Part shown: positions 1,403 through 47,569 of the stretch, in pieces
How positions within the stretch are numbered: position 1 is the stretch's first letter
Layout of the letters: each line of letters starts with the position of its first letter
Assembly (NCBI GenBank): GCA_004769085.1
Contig: DUDS01000028.1
Location: forward strand, 3,914-67,913
From: Candidatus Melainabacteria bacterium SSGW_16
GTDB lineage: Bacteria; Cyanobacteriota; Vampirovibrionia; 2-02-FULL-35-15
Direction of reading: 5' to 3'
DNA: 64,000 bases
Notes under the pieces: generated by a model
What the model saw: the letters and a program-made list of their open reading frames with translations, nothing else
What the model was told of the DNA's origin: nothing
Database searches by the model: none
Position numbers and translations under genes: made by a program

Positions 1403-2380
1403 TTAAGGATTCCTGCAACATCTAAGATTGGAGTTGCAAGTACTGCTACCTGTCCCATCTGAGCAAAGACATCTAGAACCAGACACGCTGCAACTACCAC
1501 AGTCAACTGTTCCATCTGGGCATAAACTAGGTGGAGGAGTTGGAGTAGGCGGTGGTGGTATCGGCGTTGGACAGTTAGGCTTACAAGCATTTGTAGGTGG
1601 TGAGCAGCAATCGCCGCTATTTGCACAGCACCATGTACTACCACATAAATATGGATAGCTGGGGTTGTTACATGGATTTGGGGTTGAGGCTGGAGTGGAA
1701 GTTGGAGTCGGCGTCGGTGTTGGAGTAGAAGTACAAGCAGCATTAGGTACTGTGCCAGCACATGTTTGTCCTGGTGGGCATTCTGCTCCTATCCAGGTAC
1801 AGCCAAAAGCATCTACGGTACACGTTTCAATAGCAGTAGTTCCACAACATCTTTTTCCCCCATTAGCTGCTCCACCTGAGCAAGTTGTACAAGGGGTTGG
1901 TGTGGGTGTATTGCAAAAACAAGGTATAACAGATGTGTTGCAAGTAGTAGTAATGCTTATATTGTGACAATTGGTTGTATCAGAACCACATGAAATATCT
2001 GAACATGCTGAACAATAGCAAGTCCCTGGATATGTAGAATTTGCTCTGCAATATTCTCCTGGATTACATGCATGCTGGCTGCTGGTTAATGGATCCCAAT
2101 TACAAGCAGTATTTGTACAACCATCAGGCTGGGGTGATGGCCTAGGTGTAGAGGTTGGAGCCGGGCAACAACAACTTCCAAAGACACTACCTCCAAAATA
2201 TCCTGTTGAACAGGTCTTAGGTGCATAACAAGATGAACAATTCCCGCCAGCAGCAAAAGAACAAGGGCTGTTACATGAAGATGCAGCAAAAACCTTACTG
2301 ACAAAATTATAATTGAAAATATTTATTGTAGCAGTTGCTATAAATAAAATAACTAAGCTTAAAAGTAATTTTTGTTTCAT
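1403..2380 (-). CDS. secreted cysteine-dense protein with Pro/Thr linkers
   Basis: N-terminal signal-like MKQKLLLSLVILFIATA. I count roughly 45 Cys in about 290 mature residues. Linkers PTPTPTPTPTSTP and PTPIPPPPTPTPPPS. Composition resembles the 1744-aa protein at 22242-27476. Confidence 0.8.
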   Translation of the reverse strand: MKQKLLLSLVILFIATATINIFNYNFVSKVFAASSCNSPCSFAAGGNCSSCYAPKTCSTGYFGGSVFGSCCCPAPTSTPRPSPQPDGCTNTACNWDPLTSSQHACNPGEYCRANSTYPGTCYCSACSDISCGSDTTNCHNISITTTCNTSVIPCFCNTPTPTPCTTCSGGAANGGKRCCGTTAIETCTVDAFGCTWIGAECPPGQTCAGTVPNAACTSTPTPTPTPTSTPASTPNPCNNPSYPYLCGSTWCCANSGDCCSPPTNACKPNCPTPIPPPPTPTPPPSLCPDGTVDCGSCSVSGSRCLCSDGTGSSTCNSNLRCCRNP

Positions 2381-15029: not shown

Positions 15030-15341
15030 TTATTCTATTCTGATTTCTCTGCCGCAGGAAGGACATACATCTACTGATTGGTTATCACTTATCTTGATTT
15101 TTTGCCTGAATGAAATTTGCCCAGTAGTGCATGCGGATGACTGAAGTTTAAATTTATAATACCCTGATTTACCTTGAACGGGATCCCCACAACAGGAAGA
15201 ACCAGCTGGTATATCTTCTTTCGTTTTGTCTTGTTGACAGTTAAAAGCAAATAAATCTAGTACTGATGCCTGGTATAAAATGACCAAACAGGCCAGAATT
15301 GCTGATAAGAATGACATTTTTACCATTTTAAAATTATTCAT
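15030..15341 (-). CDS. small exported 6-Cys protein, hypothetical
   Basis: Signal-like MSFLSAILACLVILYQA. The mature part has C..CC..C..CPSC. Confidence 0.6.
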   Translation of the reverse strand: MNNFKMVKMSFLSAILACLVILYQASVLDLFAFNCQQDKTKEDIPAGSSCCGDPVQGKSGYYKFKLQSSACTTGQISFRQKIKISDNQSVDVCPSCGREIRIE

Positions 15342-17341: not shown

Positions 17342-20300
17342 ATGCCATCTAACAAGCATTTTTCTCTTTTGTTAATTTTTTCTGTTTTTCTTTTTTTTGT
17401 ATCTGATGCTTTTGCTGTTGATGTGGAAAAACCCGCAGGCAGAATAATAAGTATGTCAGGTGCAGTAACTATAAGATCAGGCAGCGGTTCTATTTCTGCA
17501 AAGCCGTTTCAGGAACTTAAAGAAGGGGATGTAGTTACCACAGGATCTAATTCCCGCGCTGCAATACTTCTTAGGGATGAGAGCCTGATAAAACTAAATT
17601 CTAACTCACAAATCACTATTAAAAGTGTTATTCCACTAACGAAACCTGTTTCTACAGGTGGTGATAAAACACTCTTAAAACAGGATAGTGGTGAAATGTG
17701 GATAAGAACAAAAAATAGGCCCGGGAAGCTTGAAGTTGATACAAAATCAGGCTCAGCAGCTATCAGAGGGACAGAATTTAGTATTTATGCAGATGAAAAT
17801 AAAACATTGCTTACCCTTCTGGATGGTTCGGCTGAACTTTCAAATAATCATGGCACTGTGCTTATAACACAAAATGAACAGGGGGAAGCCACCCCGGATT
17901 CTGCACCTGTAAAAAGATCCCTTACAGTAGAAGAAACGGAAAATGCAGTGCAGTGGATTTTTTATTTCCCCAAAAATCTTGGTATAGAAAAAGAAATTAT
18001 TGATTCTGATCTGGACAGTCTTATTAAAGCTTATAAAGAGAACCCAGATAAAACTGAGCCAAAAACATATCTGGGGATTAAAAAACTGGTCAGTGGGAAC
18101 TATGAAGAAGCACTTAAACTTTTTGAAGAGGCTGAAAAAATTAGTCCTGATTCAGCCTTGAATAAAGTTATGAAAAGCAGAACTTTATTTGTTCTGCACA
18201 GACAGAAAGAAGCTCTGAGTGTAATTGATGAAGCTATAAAACTAAAACCAGACTGGTACCTTCCGTATGCTGAAAAAAGCAAACTGCTTTCTACCCAGGG
18301 AGATCTCGTAAAAGCTGAAAAAGCTGCAAAAAAGTCTGTGGAACTTGATCCTGACTCCCCTGAATCCTGGATTAGTCTTGGTGAAACCCAGTATGCATTT
18401 GGAAGAGTTAAAGATGCACAGAGAAGTTTTGACAAGGCATTAAACATAGATTCTGATTTGGCAGAAGCACATATTGGGAAAGCAAAGACTTTAATAAGTC
18501 AGTTTAGAAACAATGAAGCAATTGATGAATTTTTAAGTGCTGTTTTACTTGAACCAAAATTATCGAGAGCACATCTCTATCTGGGGCAGGCATATTACCA
18601 GAATAACGATACAAAAAAAGCAATTAGTGAAATACAGGCAGCAAGAGAAATTGATCCAAATGACCCGCTTGTATTAAACAGTCTCTCAATTATTTATGAT
18701 GTTGCACATGAATATGGAATGGCACTTGAGCTTGATGAAAAGACTATTGCCATAACCCCAAATCTTCTTGAGTCAGGAGCCAGACAGAGCAGAAACCTTT
18801 CTGTGGCAAGTGGTAACTTTGGTATTCAGCCGTTAAGGTTTGGGCTTACAGACTGGGCATTTTTTCAGGCTAATAAAGCTATAAGAGAAAATCCAATTGA
18901 TGGAGCAAGTCATCTTACACTTGGGAGTATTTACAACAGTAATAGAATTGAACCAGGAATCCCAAAAGGTGATGGTCAAGGAATCGGACAGGCTCAGTTG
19001 AGCACAGGGCAGATAAGAGGACTGAGAGGGACTACCTTATCCGGCATTAATGCAAGAACTTCTACAAATGAATTTGATTTAGGACTAAATTATGCTTCAG
19101 ATTCTGAACGAGTTATAGGAAAGATCCTTTCGCCAAGTGTTATTGGTTCTCCAAATGGAAGATACAGATTTTTCAGAGCACCTGAACTTTATGTAACTGC
19201 CGATGGCTTATTTGGACAGCAGCAAATCTCACTTTTAAGTGAGGGGGGAATAAAAGCAAACGGTTACCTGGGTACACCGTTGAATTTCTATTTAAATGGT
19301 GAGTTCAGGGGTGGTTATATAAAAGATGTATTTGGTGACATTATAGGTCGTGGAAACAGATCATTTTTTAGATCTGACTTTGCATTTACCCCGTCAAAGA
19401 CACTTGATGTTATTGGCTCTTATACAAGAGCGGATGTTAATCAGAGAGTTTTTGACAGGAATTTCCCCAAAGCCAGACACCTTTTTACTCCTGATTTAAA
19501 CAATTTTGATGTGTCTTTAAACTGGCACCCTAACACCCGCAACACAATATTGAACAGATTTTTTGGCGAGATAAGTTCTACAAGGCTTGACGGGAGTACA
19601 CCAGGGCTTGGGAGTTCAATGTTATTTGCAGGTGTTTTCCCGAGGAATTATGGTTACCAGATAAGACATCTTAAAAATACTGACAAACACAGGTTTACCT
19701 GGGGAAGTGAATGGATACACTCAAATAATCCTGCTCAGGTAAAAGTTGATTTCTTAAGCATGGGCATTGTACCGCCTATTAATACCATTGGATATCTTAA
19801 AGAAAGATCAAGATATGACGTTATTACGGGCTATGTTCAGGATCTGATGAGATTCAATAAAAAAACAGATTTTGTGCTTGGTTTGAGATACGATCAAATT
19901 TTCCAAAGAACAAAGGATAATACTTTCACTCAAACAGTAATCGATGGAATGAGTTCTTTTACTGAAACCTTTGATAAAAGATTTACAGACAGAGTTTCTT
20001 TCAGCCCGCAGACAGCATTTGCTTACAGTGTTGGAGAAAATACAGTTATAAGACTTGGTTCGCAACATAAAGCATTTTATAATACTTTTCTTCCTGAGCT
20101 TGCTCCTCAGGATGTTGCCGGACTTCCATTTGGGGATCAGGCAGAATTTTTTACAAGAGGAACTGAGGGCTGGGAACATGCAGCAAGCTTTGAACACAGA
20201 GTTACAGGAGTTAAATGGCTTCAGTCTTTTGTGAAATTTAAACCATTTTATAGAAGAATGCTAGTAAGGGATTTTGACAGCATAGCTGATCATCAGGTAC

Positions 20301-20794
20301 AGAGAATAAGAAACTGGGGATTTGAAGTTAGTTATAATCAGCTTTTATATAAACAAATAGGATTTTTTGCTACATATGTTTACCAGCATATAAGAGATAG
20401 AACTCCATATAAGATTTTTTCAAACGATTTAACATTTGCTACTGCAATAGTAAATGGAAGAATACCACCACTTCAGGTTCCTAATAGATTTCGTTTTGGG
20501 TGGACATGGCATAGTCCTACAGGGATTAGTTTAAACTACATAAATACATATATTGGACCTAAGTTTGCAAGCCTAGGAGAAAAGGATAAAATCAGAGGCT
20601 ATTTTGTTGGTGATGTAAATCTTAGCTATGAATCACCAAGAACAAAAAGCTATCTGGCAACTATCGGTGTAAACAATATATATGGAGCAGCTTTCAGGCA
20701 GTCTCTGAGACAGCGGGATCCTGGAGTTACATTTTACGGGAATTTTGAAATACGCGGTGTTATACCTCTTAGCAAATACTTCTGGTGGAAGTAA
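17342..20794 (+). CDS. exported FecR-domain / TPR / C-terminal beta-rich fusion protein (1150 aa)
   Basis: Signal peptide, then a FecR-like segment (GDVVTTGSNSRAAILLRDESLIKLNSNSQI ... AAIRGTEF), several TPR repeats (aa ~230-470) and a ~650-aa aromatic/Gly-rich C-terminal region that looks barrel-like by eye. Confidence 0.75.
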   Translation: MPSNKHFSLLLIFSVFLFFVSDAFAVDVEKPAGRIISMSGAVTIRSGSGSISAKPFQELKEGDVVTTGSNSRAAILLRDESLIKLNSNSQITIKSVIPLTKPVSTGGDKTLLKQDSGEMWIRTKNRPGKLEVDTKSGSAAIRGTEFSIYADENKTLLTLLDGSAELSNNHGTVLITQNEQGEATPDSAPVKRSLTVEETENAVQWIFYFPKNLGIEKEIIDSDLDSLIKAYKENPDKTEPKTYLGIKKLVSGNYEEALKLFEEAEKISPDSALNKVMKSRTLFVLHRQKEALSVIDEAIKLKPDWYLPYAEKSKLLSTQGDLVKAEKAAKKSVELDPDSPESWISLGETQYAFGRVKDAQRSFDKALNIDSDLAEAHIGKAKTLISQFRNNEAIDEFLSAVLLEPKLSRAHLYLGQAYYQNNDTKKAISEIQAAREIDPNDPLVLNSLSIIYDVAHEYGMALELDEKTIAITPNLLESGARQSRNLSVASGNFGIQPLRFGLTDWAFFQANKAIRENPIDGASHLTLGSIYNSNRIEPGIPKGDGQGIGQAQLSTGQIRGLRGTTLSGINARTSTNEFDLGLNYASDSERVIGKILSPSVIGSPNGRYRFFRAPELYVTADGLFGQQQISLLSEGGIKANGYLGTPLNFYLNGEFRGGYIKDVFGDIIGRGNRSFFRSDFAFTPSKTLDVIGSYTRADVNQRVFDRNFPKARHLFTPDLNNFDVSLNWHPNTRNTILNRFFGEISSTRLDGSTPGLGSSMLFAGVFPRNYGYQIRHLKNTDKHRFTWGSEWIHSNNPAQVKVDFLSMGIVPPINTIGYLKERSRYDVITGYVQDLMRFNKKTDFVLGLRYDQIFQRTKDNTFTQTVIDGMSSFTETFDKRFTDRVSFSPQTAFAYSVGENTVIRLGSQHKAFYNTFLPELAPQDVAGLPFGDQAEFFTRGTEGWEHAASFEHRVTGVKWLQSFVKFKPFYRRMLVRDFDSIADHQVQRIRNWGFEVSYNQLLYKQIGFFATYVYQHIRDRTPYKIFSNDLTFATAIVNGRIPPLQVPNRFRFGWTWHSPTGISLNYINTYIGPKFASLGEKDKIRGYFVGDVNLSYESPRTKSYLATIGVNNIYGAAFRQSLRQRDPGVTFYGNFEIRGVIPLSKYFWWK

Positions 20795-20806: not shown

Positions 20807-22075
20807 ATGTCTTCTTTTACCTTTATTTTCCCAAATATAATCTTAGCCCTGGTTTATGTTTTGATTACTCTTGAAAAGCTTCCCAGAGTTGTTATTGCAC
20901 TCCTTGGGGCAAGTGTTTTAATTATTTTTAAATCTATAACTCAGGAAGAAGCGTTTCATTATATAGATTTTAATGTAATTTTTCTCCTTGTCGGGATGAT
21001 GATACTTGTAAATATCCTTAGAGAAACCGGGGGAATAAGATGGCTTGCAATATGGACAGCAAAGAGAGTAAACGGCAGCGGTGTTTTGTTAATGATTTAT
21101 TTTTCACTGCTTACTGCTTTTATTTCTGCATTTCTGGATAATGTAACCACTGTAATTCTTCTTGGTTCTGTAACAGTTGCAATATCAAGAGACCTTAAAA
21201 TAAATCCAATACCATATCTTGTAAGTCAGGCAATAGCTTCAAATATTGGAGGAACAGCAACTTTAATAGGAGATCCCCCAAATATAATGATAGGTTCTGC
21301 TGCTGGACTTGGATTTAATGAGTTTATTCTTCATCTAGCACCTGTTATTTTGCTTATTTTGCCGGTTACGATTTTGACACTTTATTTAATTTATAGAAAT
21401 CAACTCACTATACCTGAATCAGCAAGGAAAGAACTAAATAAAATATCGCTTAAGGGAATAATTACAAATAAATCTCTTCTCAAAAAATCACTTATTGTAA
21501 TTATGCTTGTAGTAATTACTTTTTTCTTTCACCGTCTGCTTGGGCTTGAAGCAGGAACTATTGCTATTGCCGGGGCTTCTGTTCTTTTAATTTTTGAAAA
21601 TAAAAAACATATATGGGAGGATGTGGAGTGGACTACAATTTTCTTTTTTATAGGATTATTTATTATCGTGGGAGCTGTTGAGAAGGTAGGAACAATCAAT
21701 TATCTGGCTGATCTTATTTTTAAATTAAGTAAAGGCAGTTATGAATTTACTGTACTTGGGGTTTTATGGATGTCAGGGTTTCTTTCGGCAATAATTGACA
21801 ACATTCCTTATACTGCTACTATGATTCCTCTTATAAAACATCTTGGAGATCATTACAGTAATTTAAATCCTTTATGGTGGGCGCTTTCTCTTGGAGCATG
21901 TCTTGGGGGAAATGGAACTCTTATTGGAGCAAGTGCAAATATTGTAATAGCAGATATGGCAAGCAAACAAGGTTATAAAATTACTTTTTTAGAGTTTTTC
22001 AGGGCAGGTTTTATAGTAATGATTGAGTCTCTTTTAATTTGTAGTTTATATATATGGTTTAGGTATTTAAATTAG
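20807..22075 (+). CDS. ArsB/NhaD-superfamily (CitMHS-like) anion permease
   Basis: About 10-12 TM segments, with LDNVTTVILL and NIGGTATLIGDPPNIMIG motifs repeated in the C-terminal half (GGNGTLIGASANIV). Confidence 0.8.
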   Translation: MSSFTFIFPNIILALVYVLITLEKLPRVVIALLGASVLIIFKSITQEEAFHYIDFNVIFLLVGMMILVNILRETGGIRWLAIWTAKRVNGSGVLLMIYFSLLTAFISAFLDNVTTVILLGSVTVAISRDLKINPIPYLVSQAIASNIGGTATLIGDPPNIMIGSAAGLGFNEFILHLAPVILLILPVTILTLYLIYRNQLTIPESARKELNKISLKGIITNKSLLKKSLIVIMLVVITFFFHRLLGLEAGTIAIAGASVLLIFENKKHIWEDVEWTTIFFFIGLFIIVGAVEKVGTINYLADLIFKLSKGSYEFTVLGVLWMSGFLSAIIDNIPYTATMIPLIKHLGDHYSNLNPLWWALSLGACLGGNGTLIGASANIVIADMASKQGYKITFLEFFRAGFIVMIESLLICSLYIWFRYLN

Positions 22076-22241: not shown

Positions 22242-25200
22242 TTAATTTCCTGTAACTGTAACCAGCGGGCTGCAAGTTCCTGTAGTAGTGTTACAAAGTT
22301 TAACCTGAATTCCAGACTGAAAGCTTGAAGTAAAATAAGTAGCTCTATCATATGAAATAGGTCCGTTATTAAAACAGAGTGCTAAAGAAGGATGCATATT
22401 TGTACCAGCTGTATCTTTTAACACAGCACAGTTGCTTCCACCTAGTGAGGTCGCACTGAAATCTATAGTAACTGTACTTCCACTTATTGAAACACTGTTT
22501 AATGTTATTGTTTCTGTTGTTGTTACAGCCACCAGGCTACTGCAACTATTTGAATTGTTTTGATTGCATAACTTAACTTGTGTTCCACTTACAAGGGCAG
22601 GAGTGAAATCAGATGTAGGAAAAACAGAGTTAAAAGAGCCGACTCCGCACAGATTAGTTGACTTTAGTATGTTATTGCTTGCATCTTTGACAAGTAAGCA
22701 TGTGTAAGGATCGACACTATAAGATATTGTTGCACTTGCTCCATTAATTGAGACACTGCTAAGTGTAATCGTTTCAGATGCTCCACAACCAACTGTACTG
22801 TAGGTTTGTCCTGATGGGCAGGTGCATTTGTTTTGTGAATCATATGTAGCACTTCCGGCACATATACAAGCATCGGATCCTTGTGAAGCTTCTCCAGGAT
22901 TGCATGGTCTTTCGCATCCATTAAATGGATCATATGTTCTTCCATTGGTACAACTACATGAGCCGCCTGAACCACCAAACGTTCCATATGGACCACAGCT
23001 ACATGGATTTGACGAGTTATATCCTTCTCCTATATAACACATTCTTCTACAAGAGTTTGTGTAATTTGAATTATGATAGATAGAACCATTTGAACATTTG
23101 CAAGAACCATTTCGTCCAGTTGGTTGTGCACCGCCACCGCATGTGCAACCTGTTGCACTTTGTCCGGGGACACATTCAACAGTTCCTGTCACTGTAACCA
23201 GCTGACTACAAACATTGTAGTTATTTCCATGACATAGTTTTACTTGAATCCCTGACTGAAAACTTGAATTGAGCTCTGAAACAGATACTGTTGTTGAATT
23301 ATTTCCTGAAGTACAGAAAAGGTTCTGAGTGTGCAGTATTACATTGTTTGAGTTAAGTAAATGAGCACATGTAGAGAAGTTCTTATTATAAGTTACTGTT
23401 GCACCATTTCCACTGATTGATACGCTGCTCAGTGTTACTTGATCTTGGGAGGTAGGAGTAGGGGTCGGTGTTGGAGCAGTATTACTTATGGTAACAAGTG
23501 AGCTGCATATGGTGCTATCGTTTGATTTGCAGATTTTAACTTGGTCACCAACAATTACTGTGTGTGGGAACGTAGATATAGGTGCATTTACAGTTGTCCC
23601 CGAGGTACTTCCACAAAATAAACTGTAAAGAGTAACACCGTTTATATCCTTGAGGTATGCGCATGAACCATCATTAGGAAAACTAGTGCTAAAGGTAACT
23701 GCAAGATTACTACTACTTATAACTGCACTTGTTAGAGTTATTGTTCCTTGAGTTGAGGCAGGACATGTTGCAAGCGTAACTGCACAAGTGTTGTCAGAAC
23801 ATCTGATTGGTGTAGCTGGAGGACAGGAAATATTAGAACATTCAGCTTGTGTAACCCTGCAAGTTCCATCTGAACACTTGAATGGATAACTGGATGGGCA
23901 AGAATTTGTCCCTCCGCTATCACATGGAATAGGAGATTTAGGAGGCAGACCAACATAGCTAGCAGCAGGAGGAGGACCATTTGGACAGACAGCTACACAA
24001 CTGTTATTAGAGAAGTAAGGTAGTCCTGTAGGACAAATACATTGTGCTTCTCCTTTTCCATTTGAATTTGGCAACATGTTACCACTGCAGTTTGTAGTAG
24101 TAACTGAAGAGCAACCATATTCTTTTGTATAAGCACCGCTATTTGTTGGACAAGTACAATATCCGCTGAAACTATATCCTCCACCAGAAGGATTGCAGGT
24201 ACACCCAGCAGTACCTACAGATATACCTGGAGAACAATAATTTGTTGAGCTTGTAGTACATTTTCCAGCTTGATCAGGATAACTTTTATCTGAGCATAAA
24301 CAAGCTAACATTGGTGAATAGTTACTACCAGGTGCAGCACTACCATATGTTTGTGGGTAACCAGCTGTTAATCCTTCAGGACATTTTGCTACACAAGTAG
24401 CACTAAAACTAATAGGCTTATCATCAGGACATTTACATGGCGGATTATTACTTGGATTTGTAATATAAGGATATGGGCAATTTGTTGTAGAACTACCACA
24501 ACCATATTCTTTTGTATAGGTTTGGTTTGAAGATGAACATTTACAAAAACCTGAGTCAGAATATGCTCCGGGTCCACATGTGCAGCCTGTTGAAGTCGAT
24601 ATTCCAGGAGAGCAATAATTTGTACTGTAAGAACCGCACCCTTGGGATGAATAAGCACCGCTGTATCCCGTTGGGCATTGGCAAGGAAGTACTAGTCCGG
24701 ATGTATAACCTGGGCTTGCACATGAACAGTTGTCTTTAGCTGGTATTTCACCGGCTTCACAATTTCTCTGATTACTATTTGTACATGGAATAGGAGATTT
24801 TGGTGATAAATTCAGACTAGCAGAAGCTGGTGGAGATCCATTTGGACAACTTGCTATGCATTTTACATTATCCCAGTAAGGTAATCCTGGAGGACAAATA
24901 CACTGAGCTTCACCTGGAGTATTGTTAGGCAACATATTGCTGCCACATCTATTTTCTTTTTTACATCCATCAGGGCCTGATATAGAACCATCTTTATTGC
25001 ATCTGCAGATACCATTTTGATCTTTATATTGATCTGTCCCACATTCGTTAGTTGGTATACATTTACCACTACTGTCTTTTTTAAAACCAGGAGGACAGTT
25101 ATTTGTGATTACTATTCCAAAACACTGATTGCATTCAGGAGGTAGGTCTGATCCTGTTATATCATTGAAATCTGATGATCCAAATCCTGATGTTGGGTAT

Positions 25201-27476
25201 GGGAATGTATTCCCGTTGTTAAATATTTGTTCTAGATACTTCCTTACAAAAGGAATACTCCTGCAATATTCAGGACAGTTGTGTTCTTCGCATTTCCCTG
25301 ATGGTCCTATTGCTTTGCCTTCAGGGCATTCACAAAAACCATCTTCAGTTTCTATAAAACCTGGAGGACATTTTTTTCTGCAGATACCATTTTGATCTCT
25401 TACCAGTCCTTCTTCACAAACAGGCAGGCAAATATTTTCATAATCAATGTCAATTTCATATCCTTCCGGACAAGTATCTTTGCACAATCCAATAGCATCA
25501 AATTTTACTATTCCATTCTCGTTAAAATTATCACTGTTTCTGCACAGGCACTCTCTATAGTTATTTATAACAGGCCCTTTCCCAGGAAAAGATTGGAAGT
25601 TTGCCAGTGGAGAATTACTTACCGGTGGCAGATTTTTATTACAGCATTTTGAAGAGAATAGACTAGGTTCACGCCCTGTACAGTCAAATAACCTGCCAGC
25701 TTCTATATCACAACTTCTGTGACAATCACATACTTCACAAGTTTCAAACCCATCTGTAATTGAAGAGAAGTTATTAAATAATCCTGCACGGAAATTCTCT
25801 TCACATTGTTTATGGCATGTACTTACTTCACATTCTTCTGCGATTTTATCCGGTGTAAACTGATCAAATTTGCTTTGCGGGTTTGTGCTTAGTGGTACAC
25901 AATAAGTGTTGCCTTTTGAATTTGTTGCTGTTGTCCATGAAACAGAACTGTGACTAAAGAAATTCTGATTGTAGCAATCAGTTTCGTTTATATCTGTGCC
26001 TATTCTTGCGCAGAATGGATCCTTAACAGGTTTTACGATACATTCCGGTAGTATGGGTCCACACCTTCTGCCCTGGCATATTTTTTTTGGATCAGAGTTT
26101 CCTGAAATGGTTGAAAGTTGACTAATATTACAGAAACCCGTAGTAGGAGCTTCACATTTTGGCGGCTTAATAGCACTAAATTCAACACAGTTTACTGGGG
26201 GACAGGGCAAGCTTGATATCACCTTCTGATTAAAATCGCTCAGGACTTTTGAGTACTCATTACATGGTCTATCTTCATTTATCTCTGTAGATGCTATGCT
26301 TTCACAATATCCTTTGCCAATTAAAATGTTGTCTTCAGTACTGGCCTGGCTGATGGATTCTTTTATTAAATTAAATTCAGGGAAGAAACAATCAGTATTT
26401 TCAATAAAATTCTTGAAGTCTGAACCTATTTCATTTAAATCATTGTCATCACCGTTACATTTGTCTGAAAACTGATATATATCGCATCCAAAATCCTGGA
26501 AAGTATCTGGTTCTTCCTCTTCTGTCTGTAGTTTTTCAAGTTGATCCTTTGCTGCTTCACTGGCAAGTTCTTCATATTCTTTCCCGATTCCTGCTGTAAT
26601 GCTTGATCCATCGCTTACTTGAATAGGTTTCTTTGCTTTTAATGCATTGCTTTCAACATCATTGTTAAGAGGTGTAACTGCAAACTGATCTTTTTCTGTT
26701 ATGGCATGAATAATACCAACATCAATCTTTTCAGGGATCTCAGTAAGTGATTTTGTTTCATTTTCGTCCTTATTATTTTTAAGTCCATATTTATCGATTC
26801 CGCTGGTTCTTCCTTTTCTCAAAATGGAAGTATTTTTTAATTTATCTGCTCTTACCTCAGCAATAAATCCTCCATTCTCACCGATGGGCACTGTATTGTC
26901 CGAAATTATATTTCCATTTAAATCTTCAATTGTTACAAAACCAGATTTTGCTGATTTTACACTTCCTACAATAAGTGCTGGTGTCTGATAGTTGAATGAT
27001 TCTGAAGATACATCAAGCTCTTCTCCGGAAATTATTACTTTATAATCTCCTTTTGGTAGCGAGCTGGGTGATAATGTAATGCCAGCAGATGTTGTGGTAC
27101 TTGAAAAATTAACTGACAGATAAAGCTTGCTCTGTCCTTTTATCCTCTTTCTTTGTATGCTGATTCCGTTTGCTGGAATTTTATAATCTTTTGTTGAGTC
27201 AATAGTTGAAGCAAGATTCAGTGAGAGTCTGTTTAGACCTAACTTTCTTACTGTATTTAAAAGTGACTTTGGAAGTAGCAGTAAAATCTGATTGACATTT
27301 GGATCCAGAACACTTCCAAATATGTTTGAATTACCATTTTCGTTTATGGCCTGAATATTTGCCTGGTGTACAGTATTTGAGTTTTTCTTTTTTCCATTAG
27401 AAGCATATGATGAACAAGCAGGAATCAAAATTCCTGCTGCTAAAATAAAAGCAACAATAATAGAAAGGAATCTCAT
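22242..27476 (-). CDS. giant exported cysteine-dense repeat protein (1744 aa), possible lipoprotein
   Basis: Signal/lipobox-like ILIPAC. The N-terminal ~330 aa are Cys-poor, followed by dense CxxC/CxC modules (e.g. CPEGYEID..CLPVCEEG..GICRKKCPPGF..GFCECPEG), an internal ~285-aa duplication, a PTPTPTPT linker and four C-terminal ~85-aa 4-Cys modules. Confidence 0.85.
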   Translation of the reverse strand: MRFLSIIVAFILAAGILIPACSSYASNGKKKNSNTVHQANIQAINENGNSNIFGSVLDPNVNQILLLLPKSLLNTVRKLGLNRLSLNLASTIDSTKDYKIPANGISIQRKRIKGQSKLYLSVNFSSTTTSAGITLSPSSLPKGDYKVIISGEELDVSSESFNYQTPALIVGSVKSAKSGFVTIEDLNGNIISDNTVPIGENGGFIAEVRADKLKNTSILRKGRTSGIDKYGLKNNKDENETKSLTEIPEKIDVGIIHAITEKDQFAVTPLNNDVESNALKAKKPIQVSDGSSITAGIGKEYEELASEAAKDQLEKLQTEEEEPDTFQDFGCDIYQFSDKCNGDDNDLNEIGSDFKNFIENTDCFFPEFNLIKESISQASTEDNILIGKGYCESIASTEINEDRPCNEYSKVLSDFNQKVISSLPCPPVNCVEFSAIKPPKCEAPTTGFCNISQLSTISGNSDPKKICQGRRCGPILPECIVKPVKDPFCARIGTDINETDCYNQNFFSHSSVSWTTATNSKGNTYCVPLSTNPQSKFDQFTPDKIAEECEVSTCHKQCEENFRAGLFNNFSSITDGFETCEVCDCHRSCDIEAGRLFDCTGREPSLFSSKCCNKNLPPVSNSPLANFQSFPGKGPVINNYRECLCRNSDNFNENGIVKFDAIGLCKDTCPEGYEIDIDYENICLPVCEEGLVRDQNGICRKKCPPGFIETEDGFCECPEGKAIGPSGKCEEHNCPEYCRSIPFVRKYLEQIFNNGNTFPYPTSGFGSSDFNDITGSDLPPECNQCFGIVITNNCPPGFKKDSSGKCIPTNECGTDQYKDQNGICRCNKDGSISGPDGCKKENRCGSNMLPNNTPGEAQCICPPGLPYWDNVKCIASCPNGSPPASASLNLSPKSPIPCTNSNQRNCEAGEIPAKDNCSCASPGYTSGLVLPCQCPTGYSGAYSSQGCGSYSTNYCSPGISTSTGCTCGPGAYSDSGFCKCSSSNQTYTKEYGCGSSTTNCPYPYITNPSNNPPCKCPDDKPISFSATCVAKCPEGLTAGYPQTYGSAAPGSNYSPMLACLCSDKSYPDQAGKCTTSSTNYCSPGISVGTAGCTCNPSGGGYSFSGYCTCPTNSGAYTKEYGCSSVTTTNCSGNMLPNSNGKGEAQCICPTGLPYFSNNSCVAVCPNGPPPAASYVGLPPKSPIPCDSGGTNSCPSSYPFKCSDGTCRVTQAECSNISCPPATPIRCSDNTCAVTLATCPASTQGTITLTSAVISSSNLAVTFSTSFPNDGSCAYLKDINGVTLYSLFCGSTSGTTVNAPISTFPHTVIVGDQVKICKSNDSTICSSLVTISNTAPTPTPTPTSQDQVTLSSVSISGNGATVTYNKNFSTCAHLLNSNNVILHTQNLFCTSGNNSTTVSVSELNSSFQSGIQVKLCHGNNYNVCSQLVTVTGTVECVPGQSATGCTCGGGAQPTGRNGSCKCSNGSIYHNSNYTNSCRRMCYIGEGYNSSNPCSCGPYGTFGGSGGSCSCTNGRTYDPFNGCERPCNPGEASQGSDACICAGSATYDSQNKCTCPSGQTYSTVGCGASETITLSSVSINGASATISYSVDPYTCLLVKDASNNILKSTNLCGVGSFNSVFPTSDFTPALVSGTQVKLCNQNNSNSCSSLVAVTTTETITLNSVSISGSTVTIDFSATSLGGSNCAVLKDTAGTNMHPSLALCFNNGPISYDRATYFTSSFQSGIQVKLCNTTTGTCSPLVTVTGN

Positions 27477-27761: not shown

Positions 27762-30188
27762 TTATTTTTTATTTCCTTTGGAACTAGGTAAATTATTATT
27801 AGGCAGAGCTGGTTGTGTAATAGCAATGGAATTATTACCATTGTTTAAAGGGTTCTGATTATTATTTCCTGAATTATTGCCAGGTAAAACTGGTGGCGGT
27901 GGTAAAACTGGTTGAGTAATAGCAATGGAATTATTACCATTGTTTGAAGGATTCTGGTTATTGTTTCCTGAATTATTATTAGGCAAAGTTGGTTGAGTAA
28001 TAGCAATGGAATTATTACCATTGTTTGAAGGATTCTGGTTATTGTTTCCTGAATTATTATTAGGCAAAGTTGGTTGAGTAACAGTTATGGGATTAAAGTC
28101 ATCATCATCATGTGAAGGGTGATTATTGTTTCCTGAGTTGTTATTAGGCAGAGGTGGTTGAGTAACAGTTATTGGATTAAAGTCATCATCGTCATCATCA
28201 TGTGAAGGGTGATTATTGTTTCCTGAGTTGTTATTAGGCAGAGGTGGTTGAGTAATAGCAATGGGATTAAAACCATTACCATTGTTTGAAGGATTCTGAT
28301 TATTGTTTCCTGAGTTGTTATTAGGCAGAGGTGGTTGAGTAACAGTTATGGGATTAAAGTCGTCATCGTCATCATCATGTGAAGGGTGATTATTATTTCC
28401 TGAGTTGTTATTAGAGCCATGGTTGTCATCATCGTCGTCATCATCATCATTGTGTGAGGTGTGATGATCGTTATTATTAGAGCCATGGTTGTCATCATCG
28501 TCGTCATCATCATCATTGTGTGAGGTGTGATGATCGTTGTTATTAGAGCCATGGTTGTCATCGTCGTCGTCATCATCATCTAATGAAGTTTCTATGGGGG
28601 CTGGCTGAGCAGTTAATTTAGGATTCTTTAATGATGTCCCTCCGCGGGGTGAATTCCTAACATTTTCAACTAAGGCTGAAATAAATGAAGGATCATAGCC
28701 ATTTCCTGAAGCAGACTGGTTTATTATTACATTTGGATTATGTGAAATAAAATCAGGATCGTTCCAGACTGGGCCATTACCGTAGGAAACAGTTGTATTT
28801 CCATTAGTTGCCTGATTATTATTTCCATTGTTGTTTCCATTATTGTTGTTAGTTGAGTCAGATTCATTTGGTTCATCAACAGATATTTCTACAGAAACAT
28901 TTTCGACTGGAGTCTCATTTATTACAGCATCATTGCTTGCAACGTTATTTATATCATCTGCTTCAATATCTGCTTCACTTATAAGAAAAAGTCCTCTGAA
29001 AATCGGACTTTCTTCTCCAGATTCATTTGTAATTCTAATCCTGAATCTTGCAGTGTCAGTGCTTTCTATTTTGAAGGTTTCAAATGAAGGTAAACCATCT
29101 CCTGATGTCTCTGTTTCTGCAAGTAAAGTATTTTTTGAATCTTCAAATGCTGAGTAAATGAGAACCTTTTGTTTAAAATTTTCTGCAAAATAAAGTCCAA
29201 GTGTACATCCGTTTATGCAGGTATTGTCTGGAGGAGAAAGATAAAATTCAGCACCATTAAATCCGTCTGGACCGGACTGTCCTTTTATTACCTTAAAACT
29301 GTATGAGTCTGCTACCCTGGATGAAACAAATTCATATCCTGTTGAAGTTGTATCTTCTATACTTCCCAGACTAATGTCTATAATATCCTTATCGTACGTA
29401 TCTTCTTCAGCATCTGGTGACCATACTATTGCATTATAATTTTCTCTAAACAGATTATTAAGAGATAACGGGGCTTCAACTTTAGTTCTGCCGTCGTAAT
29501 TTACTGGGAGGCTTTTTTCTTCTCTCGGAGTTCCCCAGAATAATCCACTTACTACTGGTTTTGTGTTACTGGCTGTTTTCAACTCAATTGTTGCTTTGCC
29601 ACTAGTACCTTTTGGTGGTCCTTTAATTAAAAGATTCAGATAGCAACCTTTGTTGTACTTTGTATTTTGAATATAAACAATATCTCCAAGTGAATCCAAA
29701 GCGTATGAAAGTTTAATTCTGACTTGCTGTTCCGGGATTTTGCTTACAAAGGGGTCGATATAAATACTTAGCGGATACCATACTCCAAAATTGCTGTTAT
29801 TTTCTAATTCAAGATTTATTTCTGTGGATTCACCTGGCAAAGAAGAGGTAATATAAAAACCATTTCTGGAATTTTTAGATGATTCAAGTGTGCTAATTCC
29901 AATTAAACTTGTCTGCTCAATAATGCCGTTGTATTGAACACTTTTTACAAAGCTAGGAAGATTGTGAAGATTATCACTCTGCCCTGGAATCCAGTAATAA
30001 GAGTATTCTGATGACCATGCTCCATTTAGTTCACAGTTGAGCTTTTGAATATCTTCTTTAATGTAGTCAGTGTTAAGGTAGATTGTATTGGAAACCGTTT
30101 CTGCTGAAAATGCCTGATTTGGGCCCAAAAGTAGTATAAAAACTGTTAACAGCATTTGTGTAATGCAAATTAAGAACCTGCTATTCAT
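27762..30188 (-). CDS. exported protein with globular N-terminal half and Asn/Asp/His-rich tandem-repeat C-terminal half (808 aa)
   Basis: Signal peptide ending AFSAE. The C-terminal half has repeats NNNDHHTSHNDDDDDDDDNHGS (x3), FNPITVTQPPLPNNNSGNNNHPSHDDDDDD and NSIAITQPTLPNNNSGNNNQNPSNNGN. Confidence 0.8.
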   Translation of the reverse strand: MNSRFLICITQMLLTVFILLLGPNQAFSAETVSNTIYLNTDYIKEDIQKLNCELNGAWSSEYSYYWIPGQSDNLHNLPSFVKSVQYNGIIEQTSLIGISTLESSKNSRNGFYITSSLPGESTEINLELENNSNFGVWYPLSIYIDPFVSKIPEQQVRIKLSYALDSLGDIVYIQNTKYNKGCYLNLLIKGPPKGTSGKATIELKTASNTKPVVSGLFWGTPREEKSLPVNYDGRTKVEAPLSLNNLFRENYNAIVWSPDAEEDTYDKDIIDISLGSIEDTTSTGYEFVSSRVADSYSFKVIKGQSGPDGFNGAEFYLSPPDNTCINGCTLGLYFAENFKQKVLIYSAFEDSKNTLLAETETSGDGLPSFETFKIESTDTARFRIRITNESGEESPIFRGLFLISEADIEADDINNVASNDAVINETPVENVSVEISVDEPNESDSTNNNNGNNNGNNNQATNGNTTVSYGNGPVWNDPDFISHNPNVIINQSASGNGYDPSFISALVENVRNSPRGGTSLKNPKLTAQPAPIETSLDDDDDDDDNHGSNNNDHHTSHNDDDDDDDDNHGSNNNDHHTSHNDDDDDDDDNHGSNNNSGNNNHPSHDDDDDDFNPITVTQPPLPNNNSGNNNQNPSNNGNGFNPIAITQPPLPNNNSGNNNHPSHDDDDDDFNPITVTQPPLPNNNSGNNNHPSHDDDDFNPITVTQPTLPNNNSGNNNQNPSNNGNNSIAITQPTLPNNNSGNNNQNPSNNGNNSIAITQPVLPPPPVLPGNNSGNNNQNPLNNGNNSIAITQPALPNNNLPSSKGNKK
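27790..28590 (-). repeat. in-frame coding tandem repeats (81-90-nt and 66-nt units)
   Basis: The gttgagtaa unit starts at 27911, 27992, 28073 (81-nt period), 28157, 28247 and 28334. The agagccatgg unit starts at 28413, 28479 and 28545 (66-nt period). Confidence 0.85.
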
Positions 30189-43706: not shown

Positions 43707-44114
43707 GTGGCTGCTCAAACAAAAAGATATAACAATGAATCTGATGAATCTTTTAAGGAAAGACAGTTATCAAGCCTTTTTACAATAATCAGTAACAATT
43801 TACTTGTTGCTACTGAAGTACTCGGAGGTGGTTACAAAAATAACTCTGTTAAAGAACTTGAACAATTATCCAAACAAGCAAAGAATCTTTCAAAAGAACT
43901 TGTGTCAAGTTCTAATACCTCTCTTAAAGATGAAATCTCAGAAAGAATCTCAAACCTTAAACATAAAATGCTTGAGCTTATAACAGATTTAACAGATGAG
44001 CTTGGAAAACTTGATATCGGTAGAAAAACCGACAAACAAGCAATAGAAAATATAATACTTGCCAGAAGGCTTCTCAGGGAATCCCAGAGGGGACTTATTA
44101 CTATACAGGACTAA
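43707..44114 (+). CDS. hypothetical coiled-coil protein (135 aa, GTG start)
   Basis: An ORF only. Its stop overlaps the stop of the convergent gene. Confidence 0.45.
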   Translation: MAAQTKRYNNESDESFKERQLSSLFTIISNNLLVATEVLGGGYKNNSVKELEQLSKQAKNLSKELVSSSNTSLKDEISERISNLKHKMLELITDLTDELGKLDIGRKTDKQAIENIILARRLLRESQRGLITIQD

Positions 44115-47100
44115 TTCTCGTTAGCATCTTCGAATATAAGATTTTCAGGATTTGCTGTTGCCTGAAGTCTTCCATTAACAATTGGATCAGGGAAAACTAT
44201 TGCGCCAATATCTGAACCTTTCGGGGTAATTATATTAAATAATTTAATTCCAGGCTTCAGGTCTCCTTTTAATTCTGCTGTAATAATAATAGAGTTGTTT
44301 ATTAACCTAAACTTTTTAAGTTTAATACCTTCATCAGGAACGAAAGTGATATTTGTAAAAAATTGTGCTTTTGATACGAGCTTTTCAAGTTTTCCATCAA
44401 TAATGGCAGATCTTCCAATGAAATTTTTACCTTTTATTGTAAGTCTTAAAAGTGAACCAGCTTTTTTAACTATAGGAATTATTGGTTCAATGATCTGGGG
44501 TTTTCCAATATTGTTTGAACTTTTGCTGTTTTGTACACTGTTCTCAGGTTTAATTGATATAAGGATTGAGGCTATTGATTCATTTCCGCTTAGAATTGAT
44601 ATTTTTGCTTCTCCTTCAGATGCATCTGAAGGTACAGTGAATGTAGAAATAAGATTATTATTTGATGAGTCTTCAGATCTAAATGCAAAACCTACCACAA
44701 AAGCCCTTCCTGAGCTGTCTACAAGTAAAGCAACATTTTGATTAGAGTCGCTTTCTGGCGGGGCTAGATTTTCATCTTCAAAGTTAATATCTGTACCAAA
44801 TGAAAAACCTTTTGGCACTTCTGGTATTTCACCTTCCTGGATAGTTTCTGTGCCTTCCGGTATTTCAATTGTTGCTTCATTACCTTCAGGTATAGGTGGA
44901 GGATTTGATATTTCTACCGATGAGAATGAATTTATGTTAATTTCATCCCTGCCGACTGAAAGCTGGTTTATTATTTCTTGGCTCAGATCTTCTGTATCAT
45001 TTGGGAGTGTTAAAACCTCTTTTTCCTGTGGTGTTTCAGAATCCGTTTGATCACTACCCTGGTTACTGGGCTGCTGAATATTTTCCGGGGAATATCCAAC
45101 TTTAATACTGGTTTTAACACTATTATTAAATTCATTTGTTGCTTCAATTGTAATTAAATTTTGTCCTGGATTAAGTAGAGTTGTTGCTGAGTATTGATTG
45201 CCTGATGAGGGCAGAGTTACAGCACCGTTTACTAGCACTTCTTTTATTGGGGATTCATCTGTTACTGTAAAGCTGATATTTATACTGTTGGCTTTAAATA
45301 CACTTCCATTTGATGGTGAAAGAATGTTAATAACAGGAGAAGAATTGTTTCCTACAAGCGGGTTTGAAATTGATAACTGATTTTTATTGCCGGCTGAATC
45401 TGAAACGATTATTTTTATAGGCAGTGTAGAAGTAGTAGCAGAGAAGTTGACAATTTCATTCTTATCAAATGCAACCTGTTGTGAATTTATAAGAATAGAA
45501 GCAACATCAGAACCTGTACCATTAACTGTTCCGCTTACAGTAAATGTGTTATTTCCTGTGCTTTCTGCTGTAGCTGAGACAGAAGGAAGAACAGTATCAA
45601 TCTTTACCTTAACAATTTTCTCTGAAATATTAGCGGCATCATCGGTTGCAGTTATTACTATCTCTGATACACCGTCTGAATCAAACTCAGCATGGCTTAT
45701 GAAATTTGCAACGTTTTGCGATGAAATCCCTTCAAAGCCAAGCCTGGCATCTTTGCTGTTTACTTTAACACTTCTGACTTTTGACCCTGTGCCATCCACT
45801 TTACCCAATACTAGTACTCTCTTTGTATTTGTTATAGAAAAATCTCCTGGGGCAAAAAGTGTTATTGCAGGAGGAAATGTATCGCCTAGTAATGTACCTG
45901 ATACAAACTGAAAAATATCTTCATATCTGCTTGTTCTTGTGCTTTTATCACTTCCTGAAGAAATTAAAATGACATCTGCAAATCCTGCCTGCGGAAACCT
46001 CGGAATAATGCCGCTTATTTTCCTGCCGTCTTTTGAAACTGAAATGTTTGAAGCACAGAAATCGCTACTCCGGAAGCAAACCTTTGTGTTATTTAAACTG
46101 TTTGTAGTTGGATCAATAAAACCATCAATTACAAATGAGGAACCCCCACTTATAAAAGAAGCTGTAGGAGAAATATTCTTTAGTGTAGGACCAGGATCTA
46201 AATCTCTTATAAAACTTACTGATCCTTCATTTGTGTTTCTGGTAGCAGCAAAAAGTCCTGATGGTGATACCTGTAATGAGCTTTGGGTATTATCAGATGA
46301 AAGTGTAAGAGAAGATATTTTTGATAAATCCTTAAGATTAAGTATGAGTAGCTGTTTTAAATTGTCCTTTAGGAGAAGTATTAAAATCTTACTTTGATCC
46401 GGTGTGATTTTAGCGTCCAGAACAATGCTGTTATCAAGAAATTGTGTTGTTCCTGATAAATTAACTGAATTATCTCTGGCAACAGTCAGCTTATAAAGTT
46501 TAAAACCAGTTGTTATATCAAGAATATTTCCAACGACAACTGCTGTTTTACCATCTGGTGATATTGTGGTGAATGAAGGTCCCTCTATTGTTTTATCTAG
46601 GACTTTTGTTATAAACTTTTTGTTTTGAATGTCAAGCAGATGCAGAACATGATTTCCTCCTGCGGTGGAAATAACAGCTTTGTTTCCTGAAGCATTAAAC
46701 TGTACTCTGCTGGATAAGTCATCAAGTGAGAATGCCAGAGATTCATCTATGTCAAATTCTGTAACTGAATTATTCTGAATATCATAGAGTGAAACTGACT
46801 GTGCAAGTAAATCACCGTGAGTGATTAAAGCAAATTTAAAGTCAGGACTTACATGAACAGATCTTGCCAGGTCGAGAATTGGGGTACGGTTTAATATCTG
46901 ATCATTTTTTACATCAATTGTAACTATTTCGGGATTAACAGAATCTACTGTTCCTACAATTAAAGTTTCTCCATTTGCATCACCAAAACTTGAAACCCCA
47001 ACCTGGAGCTTTTCACTTGATATTGAATGAAGACTTTTTACAGAATTATCAATTAGATCAACAATTTGAAGGGTTGTTGAGTTTGCTTCAGAAGGTTCAT

Positions 47101-47458
47101 TGTAAACAACAGCTAAGTTATTGTTTTTATTTATTGAAACATTAAGTTGTCCTGTATTGCCTGTGCCAAGATTTATATTCTTAACATTGGCTGTAATTCC
47201 GCCTTGAACATCAAACCTTCTTAGAAATGATCCTGAGCTTTCATCAGAATCTGTTACAAGGAAAAAAGAATCATCATTTGAGATTGCAATATCAAGAGGT
47301 TTGTTAAAGCAGTTTTTGCCATTACATTTAAGAATATTTTCAGAAGTTTCTGCATAAGATGGGCATGAAATAACTATTAGAATAGTGGCTATGGCCAACA
47401 TTAAATCTATTCTTACGAGTTTTTCTTTAATAGTTTTCCAATATATAGTGTTATGCAT
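44111..47458 (-). CDS. large surface lipoprotein: beta-propeller plus IPT/TIG and Ig-like domains
   Basis: Start set at Met35 (cat 47456-47458), giving a basic n-region, a hydrophobic core and the lipobox VISC. About 8 propeller-like blades are followed by IPT-like segments (NISPTASFISGGSSFVIDG; RLTIKGKNF) and Ig-like repeats. Confidence 0.8.
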   Translation of the reverse strand: MHNTIYWKTIKEKLVRIDLMLAIATILIVISCPSYAETSENILKCNGKNCFNKPLDIAISNDDSFFLVTDSDESSGSFLRRFDVQGGITANVKNINLGTGNTGQLNVSINKNNNLAVVYNEPSEANSTTLQIVDLIDNSVKSLHSISSEKLQVGVSSFGDANGETLIVGTVDSVNPEIVTIDVKNDQILNRTPILDLARSVHVSPDFKFALITHGDLLAQSVSLYDIQNNSVTEFDIDESLAFSLDDLSSRVQFNASGNKAVISTAGGNHVLHLLDIQNKKFITKVLDKTIEGPSFTTISPDGKTAVVVGNILDITTGFKLYKLTVARDNSVNLSGTTQFLDNSIVLDAKITPDQSKILILLLKDNLKQLLILNLKDLSKISSLTLSSDNTQSSLQVSPSGLFAATRNTNEGSVSFIRDLDPGPTLKNISPTASFISGGSSFVIDGFIDPTTNSLNNTKVCFRSSDFCASNISVSKDGRKISGIIPRFPQAGFADVILISSGSDKSTRTSRYEDIFQFVSGTLLGDTFPPAITLFAPGDFSITNTKRVLVLGKVDGTGSKVRSVKVNSKDARLGFEGISSQNVANFISHAEFDSDGVSEIVITATDDAANISEKIVKVKIDTVLPSVSATAESTGNNTFTVSGTVNGTGSDVASILINSQQVAFDKNEIVNFSATTSTLPIKIIVSDSAGNKNQLSISNPLVGNNSSPVINILSPSNGSVFKANSINISFTVTDESPIKEVLVNGAVTLPSSGNQYSATTLLNPGQNLITIEATNEFNNSVKTSIKVGYSPENIQQPSNQGSDQTDSETPQEKEVLTLPNDTEDLSQEIINQLSVGRDEININSFSSVEISNPPPIPEGNEATIEIPEGTETIQEGEIPEVPKGFSFGTDINFEDENLAPPESDSNQNVALLVDSSGRAFVVGFAFRSEDSSNNNLISTFTVPSDASEGEAKISILSGNESIASILISIKPENSVQNSKSSNNIGKPQIIEPIIPIVKKAGSLLRLTIKGKNFIGRSAIIDGKLEKLVSKAQFFTNITFVPDEGIKLKKFRLINNSIIITAELKGDLKPGIKLFNIITPKGSDIGAIVFPDPIVNGRLQATANPENLIFEDANEN

Positions 47459-47569
47459 GACAAAATACTTTTCAATTGTACTGAGTTTACTTACTATCTG
47501 CCAATCTGTTTCAATTATTAGTGTGATTCCTGACACTTTTTTACATAAATTTTTTCTCATTAAACTAAT

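Follow-up and report, generated by a model that had tools for sequence, protein, structure and literature searches.

What kind of protein is encoded by a long, cysteine-dense open reading frame (ORF) of a groundwater bacterium, and are its short repeats of the eukaryotic type that was first seen in them? The ORF, called the target below, lies at 22242-27476 of a 64,000-nucleotide (nt) stretch from Candidatus Melainabacteria bacterium SSGW_16 (contig DUDS01000028.1, positions 3,914 to 67,913), which was analysed as a whole and is referred to as the window. The original prediction, made from the sequence without database searches, described a 1744-amino-acid (aa) surface protein with eukaryote-like modules. 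In the present analysis the target was most likely a surface or adhesion fibre and not eukaryote-derived. A probability of roughly 0.55 is placed on the target being a modular protein that is exported, stapled by disulfides and located outside the cell or at its surface, of a family so far found only in groundwater Candidatus Melainabacteria (Vampirovibrionia). To our knowledge, no cultures exist of the non-photosynthetic relatives of cyanobacteria, whose cell surfaces are essentially uncharted.

Authenticity of the target gene

The target was recovered as a single complete ORF, as had been proposed, and was placed on the minus strand, which the original prediction had left unstated.

22242-27476, minus strand: complete target ORF, 1744 aa plus stop (translation; same protein on three contigs)

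The 1744-aa product was encoded identically on three groundwater metagenome contigs, and a full-length ortholog was found at a syntenic locus (L002, below). The target is therefore a real gene, and the worry that it might be an assembly chimera at its internal duplication was refuted. Codon usage and the GC content of third codon positions (GC3) were typical of the window, that is, native. Tandem Repeats Finder returned no tandem DNA repeats within the gene, and a promoter and terminator scan at the target returned nothing exceeding background.

Two observations favour an artefact, with the ORF either non-functional or assembled as a chimera across its repeats: internal repeats are present in the gene, and two further target-bearing contigs break off shortly upstream of it. 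The cause of these breaks was probably the repeats of an 808-aa neighbour encoded there. Repeats within the gene are short and diverged at the DNA level. An identity of about three-quarters had been estimated by eye for two 270-nt spans; this figure held for a 94-nt core (23961-24054 against 24822-24915, 73% identity, spacing 861 nt) and not for the spans themselves, which were 58% identical against 46% when shuffled. With the product repeated on three contigs, a full-length ortholog in conserved synteny and strong purifying selection on the cysteines, the artefact reading is effectively refuted.

Cysteine content and conservation

Cysteine accounted for 7.3% of the target protein (127 residues), against a median of 0.8% in the other 42 window ORFs of at least 100 aa. 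Cys21 of the signal peptide excepted, no cysteine was found before residue 331, in agreement with the Cys-poor N-terminal region of about 330 aa that had been described. The label 'CxC/CxxC' was half right: CxC was enriched (20 observed, 11.1 expected) and CxxC was depleted (2 observed, 11.1±2.8 in shuffles).

In the alignment of aa 31-740, which covers the core and the hairpin array, invariant columns made up 25 of the 38 with Cys and 71 of the 672 without (Fisher p=1e-14), and 34 of the 38 Cys columns were at least 90% conserved. Over the first 800 aa, every cysteine of the target was kept in the L002 ortholog (42/42) as against 44.7% of the other residues. The count of mature cysteines was even in 29 of 37 family members (p=3.8e-4), the target having 126, and the module types A, X, S and T defined below carry 4 or 6 Cys each. 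The cysteines of the target protein would be paired in disulfide bonds.

A gene for a DsbA-like thioredoxin-fold protein with a signal peptide was found immediately upstream of, and divergent from, paralogs of the target at three loci.

L007, 9011-9739, minus strand: DsbA-like gene
L004, 8922-9638: DsbA-like gene
L001, 7145-7801: DsbA-like gene

Conserved N-terminal unit

The N-terminal part of the target is shared across the family and comprises the following features.

27402-27476, minus strand: N-terminal export signal, aa 1-25 (MRFLSIIVAFILAAGILIPACSSYA), the sole hydrophobic 19-mer of the target protein
27384-27401, minus strand: conserved Lys-rich stretch, aa 26-31 (…NGKKK), directly after the predicted cleavage site and family-wide
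26517-27359, minus strand: Cys-free region, aa ~40-320, with two predicted beta-sandwich (immunoglobulin-like, Ig-like) domains and helices (AlphaFold2 (AF2), Foldseek, family conservation)
25557-26486, minus strand: Cys-rich, partly helical conserved core, aa 331-640 (alignment; AF2 predicted local distance difference test score (pLDDT) 50-75)
25710-25832, minus strand: twin C-H-x-x-C motifs, C554-H-K-Q-C558 and C585-H-R-S-C589, span aa 549-589 (alignment, predicted helices)

In the alignment, homologs carry a canonical AxA site at this position with (A)KKK directly behind it, and the target protein is probably cleaved by signal peptidase I. The signal peptide was also checked for a lipobox, defined as [LVI][ASTVI][GAS]C ending the signal peptide. 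The target reads I-P-A-C21, a possible lipobox with an atypical Pro at -2, and its L002 ortholog S-M-P-C; most homologs have no Cys at this position and carry AxA-KKK instead.

The region aa ~40-320 was modelled at a pLDDT of about 80 (AF2 on aa 1-740 with a 10-sequence alignment, overall mean 62). Its best Foldseek matches in the PDB were two-domain Fab chains and the pilin EbpB (E about 5e-4 to 5e-3), and these matches of a predicted model are best taken to mean generic Ig-like sandwiches. In distant relatives the same N-terminal Ig-like region is joined to different modules, and it therefore appears, from these sequences, to act as a portable unit. DUF4215 repeats were present in three such relatives (P0054, with 7 copies at E=2e-37, P0040 and P0056), which have only the N-terminal Ig-like part in common with the target; a Laminin_G_3 domain, a ConA-like lectin domain, was present in P0021, and Gly/Pro-rich tails were the remaining module partners recorded among these four relatives. 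fn3 domains were found in relatives P0002, P0004 and P0010, and the fn3-like Pur_ac_phosph_N was also inserted in family members.

The twin CHxxC motifs were found in 33 of 33 aligned members, with a single His-to-Asn exception. Helices carrying the motifs were predicted by AF2 at aa 542-565 and 581-592, and the region may be read as a twin-CX3C, disulfide-stapled helical hairpin; the two motifs may thereby give a CX3C/CX3C hairpin with a putative two-His site. Small Tim proteins and plant alpha-hairpinins are alike in having two helices, each with C-x3-C, at a spacing fit for two inter-helix disulfides. Unlike theirs, the target motif lies inside a 300-aa Cys-rich core, and in both of its copies the first Cys is followed by a near-invariant His; it shares no sequence homology with the twin CX3C hairpin proteins, and the pairing in the target is a prediction.

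The same motifs invite a different reading, in which the many cysteines and the two near-invariant His would serve as metal or haem ligands, in place of disulfide formation. C-H-x-x-C does occur twice with a nearly invariant His, and both motifs in the target read CX4CH, a rare haem-c variant. Across the family, however, only the first CX4CH is conserved; the upstream Cys of the second is absent in at least 10 members, so that CXnCH is not a conserved motif and only CHxxC is invariant, and haem-c was rejected as a candidate. The other cysteines, more than 100 in number, lie in beta-hairpin and Ig-like modules typical of disulfide scaffolds, the paralogs are adjoined by the DsbA-like gene, and no cytochrome or metallothionein model was matched. 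Metal or cofactor binding is regarded as extremely improbable.

C-terminal module array

The remainder of the protein was divided into five module types with iterated hidden Markov models (HMMs) of the modules. H modules are C-x11-13-C hairpins (CPxGxxxDxxGxC). A modules are about 55 aa long with 6 Cys, and X modules about 43 aa with 6 Cys, in the pattern C-x9-11-C-x-C-x9-13-C-x-C-x2-G-x2-Y-x3-G-C. S modules comprise about 21 aa and 4 Cys. T modules comprise about 88 aa and 4 Cys and are predicted to be Ig-like beta-sandwiches. The order in the target is HHHH-A-X-X-A'-X-A-S-S-T-T-X-X-X-T-T, with four T modules.

25272-25550, minus strand: H modules, aa 643-735, C-x11-13-C hairpins arranged as a ladder, a stretch quoted in the original prediction (module HMMs)
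23763-25097, minus strand: variable Cys-module array, aa 794-1238, H-A-X-X-A'-X-A-S-S (HMMs; order varies in the syntenic ortholog)
24783-24947, minus strand: module A copy 1, aa 844-898, 6 Cys (59% identical to copy 2)
23922-24089, minus strand: module A copy 2, aa 1130-1185 (self-comparison; DNA core 73% identical)
23187-23747, minus strand: first two T modules (T1, T2), aa 1244-1430, ~88 aa and 4 Cys apiece, predicted Ig-like beta-sandwiches (HMM E 6e-25 and 4e-31; homologous to T3)
22785-23177, minus strand: three X modules, aa 1434-1564, 6 Cys each (HMM; AF2 pLDDT 62-90)
22251-22775, minus strand: T modules 3 and 4, aa 1568-1742, T4 forming the C-terminus (…VKLCNTTTGTCSPLVTVTGN) (AF2 pLDDT about 96 for T3)

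The peptides quoted in the original prediction were located at aa 669-720, 843-898 and 1129-1185. The internal duplication of about 285 aa inferred from them exists as a repeat and not as one block. It consists of the A module, a unit of ~55-63 aa that recurs 286 aa further on (aa 844-906 against 1130-1193, 59% identity, E=2.5e-26), and of another repeat, a second module type between the A copies (aa 921-1000 against 1048-1130, 50% identity, offset ~127 aa).

A model of X-X-X-T (aa 1431-1654) was obtained from a natural-substring alignment with a mean pLDDT of 84 (AF2). Within it the T beta-sandwich reached about 96, and the X modules, at 62-90, showed short two-stranded beta-hairpins. Foldseek searches with this model returned generic Ig-like domains only (probabilities up to 1.0, E>=0.013): T matched the Ig domain of beta-glucuronidase, SiiE BIg, SynCAM Ig1 and MG domains, and the X modules had no match. 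Most complete family members terminate in a T module.

Family members and genomic loci

A word-indexed search returned 10 homologs, of which the one bearing a name was Candidatus Melainabacteria. A scan of GTDB genomes returned 6 loci, every one in groundwater Candidatus Melainabacteria metagenome-assembled genomes (MAGs) with a GC content of 34-35%, the same as that of the window. When an N-terminal core profile was searched exhaustively with HMMER against 1.84e9 representative proteins, only about 55 core relatives were obtained. Among the matches listed for a word-indexed search with the XXXT profile there were at least 2 added ones, both Melainabacteria-type. All family relatives with a name are Candidatus Melainabacteria MAGs. 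Literature searches on cysteine-rich, adhesin or giant proteins of Melainabacteria/Vampirovibrionia turned up no description of the family. It is a small, undescribed and lineage-restricted family, and a new form of an already known sort of protein, the large modular secreted bacterial protein with Ig-like and cysteine-repeat modules.

The H stretch (aa 643-735) was the sole part of the target with matches beyond the family. Where the proteins matched by the core profile through H hairpins only had Pfam domains, these were mostly the bacterial PilY1, DUF11, TSP3_bac and RTX; weak TIL, cEGF, TNFR_nem and DUF4215 signals were also seen, and one protein had the eukaryote-type CBM_14.

The family is present in 2-3 gene copies per genome, with tandem pairs at L001 and L004. 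The window has a syntenic counterpart in locus L002: the neighbouring RelA, FecR-TPR (tetratricopeptide repeat), CitMHS, Rpe and SecD products are 75-87% identical in amino acid sequence. The L002 ortholog is 1655 aa long and about 43% identical to the target over aa 3-1248, and its module order is HXXXXAXXXSSXXXXXTTT as against HHHHAXXAXASSTTXXXTT in the window. L001, L004 and L007 form a second locus type and are syntenic among themselves. Contexts differ from one locus type to another, with flagellar genes at L008 and an extracytoplasmic function (ECF) sigma/anti-sigma pair at L007, and outside these two syntenic groups they are not conserved. When conserved partner genes were sought across locus types, only the DsbA-like gene recurred.

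Comparison with known protein families

No match to the whole target was found in Pfam or NCBIfam; a lone B3GALT2_N line (E=0.14) was dismissed as chance. PDB sequence and profile searches with the N-terminal core, the C-terminal 1004 aa, the XXXT profile and the X profile gave nothing significant, and a line to the IL-2Rα sushi domain at E about 0.05 was dismissed. The earlier statement that no characterised bacterial repeat family is matched was thus upheld in Pfam, NCBIfam and the PDB.

The likeness to furin, epidermal growth factor (EGF), laminin or protist variant-specific surface protein (VSP) repeats was not sustained. None of the EGF, furin, laminin and VSP models of Pfam matched the whole target at E<=1. 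When X modules were searched in isolation, 6 of 28 gave sub-threshold EGF_FBN_1st matches (best E 0.0014) and there were single matches to other EGF-type models; the gathering threshold of the EGF-type models was reached by no X module and not by the whole target. EGF-like domains and X share a length of ~40 aa, six Cys, a C-x-C-x2-G-aromatic…C tail and short beta-hairpins. They differ in the C2-x-C3 spacing, which is 1 residue in X and 3-8 in EGF, and X has no PDB profile or Foldseek match. The resemblance is faint, is located in the C-x-C..G..Y…GC tail and does not amount to membership.

That the modules are EGF-, furin-, laminin- or VSP-type repeats acquired from a eukaryote by horizontal transfer, or mimics of them, is accordingly very improbable. 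In its favour are the X tail, C-x-C-x2-G-x2-Y-x3-G-C, which recalls the C-terminal sub-domain of EGF, the sub-threshold EGF_FBN_1st matches and the two-stranded hairpins of the AF2 model. These are set against the absence of any such match on the whole target, the negative PDB profiles, the blank Foldseek result for X and the depletion of CxxC. The named relatives are all Melainabacteria, codon usage and GC3 are native, the outside matches of the H modules bear bacterial domains, and distant relatives of the N-terminal domains carry the bacterial DUF4215. The family gives no evidence for eukaryote-to-bacterium transfer.

The likeness to protist VSPs (Giardia VSPs, ciliate immobilisation antigens) is conceptual only. 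In both, a multi-copy family of repeat proteins rich in Cys retains its cysteine scaffold and diverges fast at the non-Cys residues. CXXC is the hallmark motif of VSPs and is depleted in the target, which also has no C-terminal transmembrane anchor or tail and no VSP Pfam match; copies number 2-3 per genome in the target family and hundreds in the case of protist VSPs.

Closer to home, DUF4215 (PF13948, 'Myxococcus cysteine-rich repeat') is likewise a bacterial, secreted type of tandem short repeat with invariant cysteines. The target nevertheless had no match to it by hmmscan, X and DUF4215 aligned with an hhalign probability of 0.6%, and the motifs differ (CGxG…CDDGN…DGC…C in DUF4215, C…CxC…CxC..G..Y…GC in X). 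Ig-like-domain adhesins (SiiE and other BIg/fn3-repeat proteins) resemble the target in being very long, secreted and modular, with a repeat number that varies among relatives. SiiE BIg domains were among the Foldseek matches of T (probability 0.99), and the T and N-terminal domains are predicted beta-sandwiches. Unlike these adhesins, the target has no Big_x, fn3 or cadherin Pfam match and no type I secretion system (T1SS) signal, autotransporter domain or LPXTG signal, and it consists mostly of cysteine mini-modules, which classical Gram-negative adhesins do not have.

A polymorphic toxin was considered and rejected: a toxin domain is absent from the target, and what lies downstream is a convergent gene for a CitMHS transporter and not an immunity gene.

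Export, location and possible function

The target is read as exported because its lone hydrophobic segment is an N-terminal signal, homologs have AxA sites, fn3, Pur_ac_phosph_N and Laminin_G_3 domains are inserted in relatives, and the models contain Ig-like sandwiches. In the scheme that we propose, the chain would be carried into the periplasm by its Sec signal peptide, and the 126 mature cysteines, an even number, would be oxidised there, probably with a DsbA-like oxidoreductase as catalyst, to disulfides within the modules. The N-terminal ~740 aa would form the family-defining unit, with two Ig-like sandwiches and a Cys-rich core that includes the twin CX3C helical hairpin. In the C-terminal ~1000 aa, the H, A, X, S and T modules of 20-90 aa would make up a stalk that is rigid and resists proteases; this array has been reshuffled, duplicated and rapidly diverged among paralogs and orthologs with retention of the cysteine scaffold. 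A conserved unit joined to a shuffled, fast-diverging array is typical of surface adhesion or recognition fibres under diversifying pressure. Because the target combines a conserved N-terminal unit with such a C-terminal array, it is read as an exposed adhesion or recognition fibre. It would be exported beyond the outer membrane, and an adhesive role is the one that we infer.

Several points weigh against this assignment. No secretion system, anchor or sorting signal was identified for the target. The C-terminus is the last T module and has no hydrophobic segment, and no LPXTG, PEP-CTERM, T9SS CTD, autotransporter barrel or T1SS RTX signal was found with Pfam and NCBIfam, in agreement with the earlier remark that no known sorting signal is present there. 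The protein could thus end up in the periplasm, on the outer-membrane surface or in the medium. A Lys-rich run right behind the predicted cleavage site, as in AxA-(A)KKK, is unusual among Sec substrates. The question of Dsb machinery, raised by the original prediction, received a split answer: a DsbA-like gene lies beside the paralogs at L001, L004 and L007, and no Dsb, VKOR or secretion-system gene was found in the 64-kb window. The DsbA adjacency is restricted to that one orthologous locus type and may amount to one evolutionary event. The fast divergence of the target could reflect relaxed constraint, not diversifying selection.

Some of the same observations could be accommodated by an envelope lattice, that is, a periplasmic or outer-membrane layer cross-linked by intermolecular disulfides, like the chlamydial cysteine-rich outer-membrane complex or an S-layer, in place of an adhesin. 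The very high Cys content would suit such a layer, as would the presence of other Cys-rich secreted ORFs in the window (1403-2380, 13.8% Cys; 15030-15341, 6.8% Cys) and the lack of an outer-membrane export or anchor signal; anionic polymers of the envelope would be possible ligands of the conserved basic N-terminus. Even Cys parity, with 4 or 6 Cys per module, points instead to bonds within modules and not between molecules. Lattice proteins are usually conserved, whereas divergence is much faster in the target than in the neighbouring genes, and its modules are shuffled. There was no sequence similarity to S-layer families or to OmcB, for which no family match was found in Pfam or NCBIfam. 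A lattice is considered unlikely, and a surface fibre is preferred.

The fibre reading can be taken further. By analogy with VSPs, the family might be a private, rapidly recombining set of cysteine-scaffolded surface fibres acting as a variable recognition or attachment coat; this is offered tentatively, as a doubtful extension. Were it true, shuffling between tandem paralogs would diversify attachment to prey or partner cells, or serve the evasion of phages or grazers, and the A, X, S and T modules would be previously undescribed mini-domains beside the twin CHxxC hairpin core.

The family contributes several new disulfide-rich mini-domains outside Pfam, NCBIfam and the PDB. It is a concrete candidate for how Melainabacteria attach to surfaces, partners or prey, and a clean bacterial case of an invariant cysteine scaffold combined with fast-evolving surfaces and module shuffling at a syntenic locus. 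MAGs commonly encode large adhesin-like proteins that are uncharacterised, and for this reason the interest of the target is rated as moderate.

Other open reading frames in the window

The nearest neighbour of the target is the secreted protein mentioned above.

27762-30188, minus strand: 808-aa secreted upstream neighbour, same strand as the target, 285-nt gap; C-terminal half of Asp/Asn/His-rich low-complexity repeats

Its repeats include DDDDDDDDNHGSNNNDHHTSHN and FNPITVTQPPLPNNNSGNNN. The L002 ortholog likewise has an ORF upstream of it, with which the N-terminal ~200 aa of the neighbour share 38% identity. A functional link to the target is uncertain.

Two smaller Cys-rich ORFs and several large envelope-type proteins were also recorded. 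The ORF at 1403-2380 (minus strand) encodes 325 aa with a signal peptide, 13.8% Cys, Pro/Thr-rich linkers and no Pfam match, and is unrelated to the target. That at 15030-15341 (minus strand) encodes 103 aa with a signal peptide, 6.8% Cys and no Pfam match; in L002 a 96-aa ORF at 21779-22069 (8.3% Cys) occupies the corresponding Maf/RelA neighbourhood, the likeness being one of position and Cys content only. In the 1150-aa product of 17342-20794 (plus strand) an N-terminal FecR domain is accompanied by numerous TPR repeats, and its L002 counterpart is 75% identical; a weak C-terminal match of the TonB-dependent-receptor type and weak similarity to Leptospira Lsa33 and LipL45 were noted. A 1149-aa envelope or secreted-type protein with a Big_7/Glucodextran_B Ig domain is encoded at 44111-47560 (minus strand), and a 913-aa protein with DUF5122/Rax2 beta-propeller repeats at 48445-51186 (plus strand). 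The 1289-aa product of 55002-58871 (minus strand) is YhdP/AsmA-like, which is consistent with a diderm envelope.

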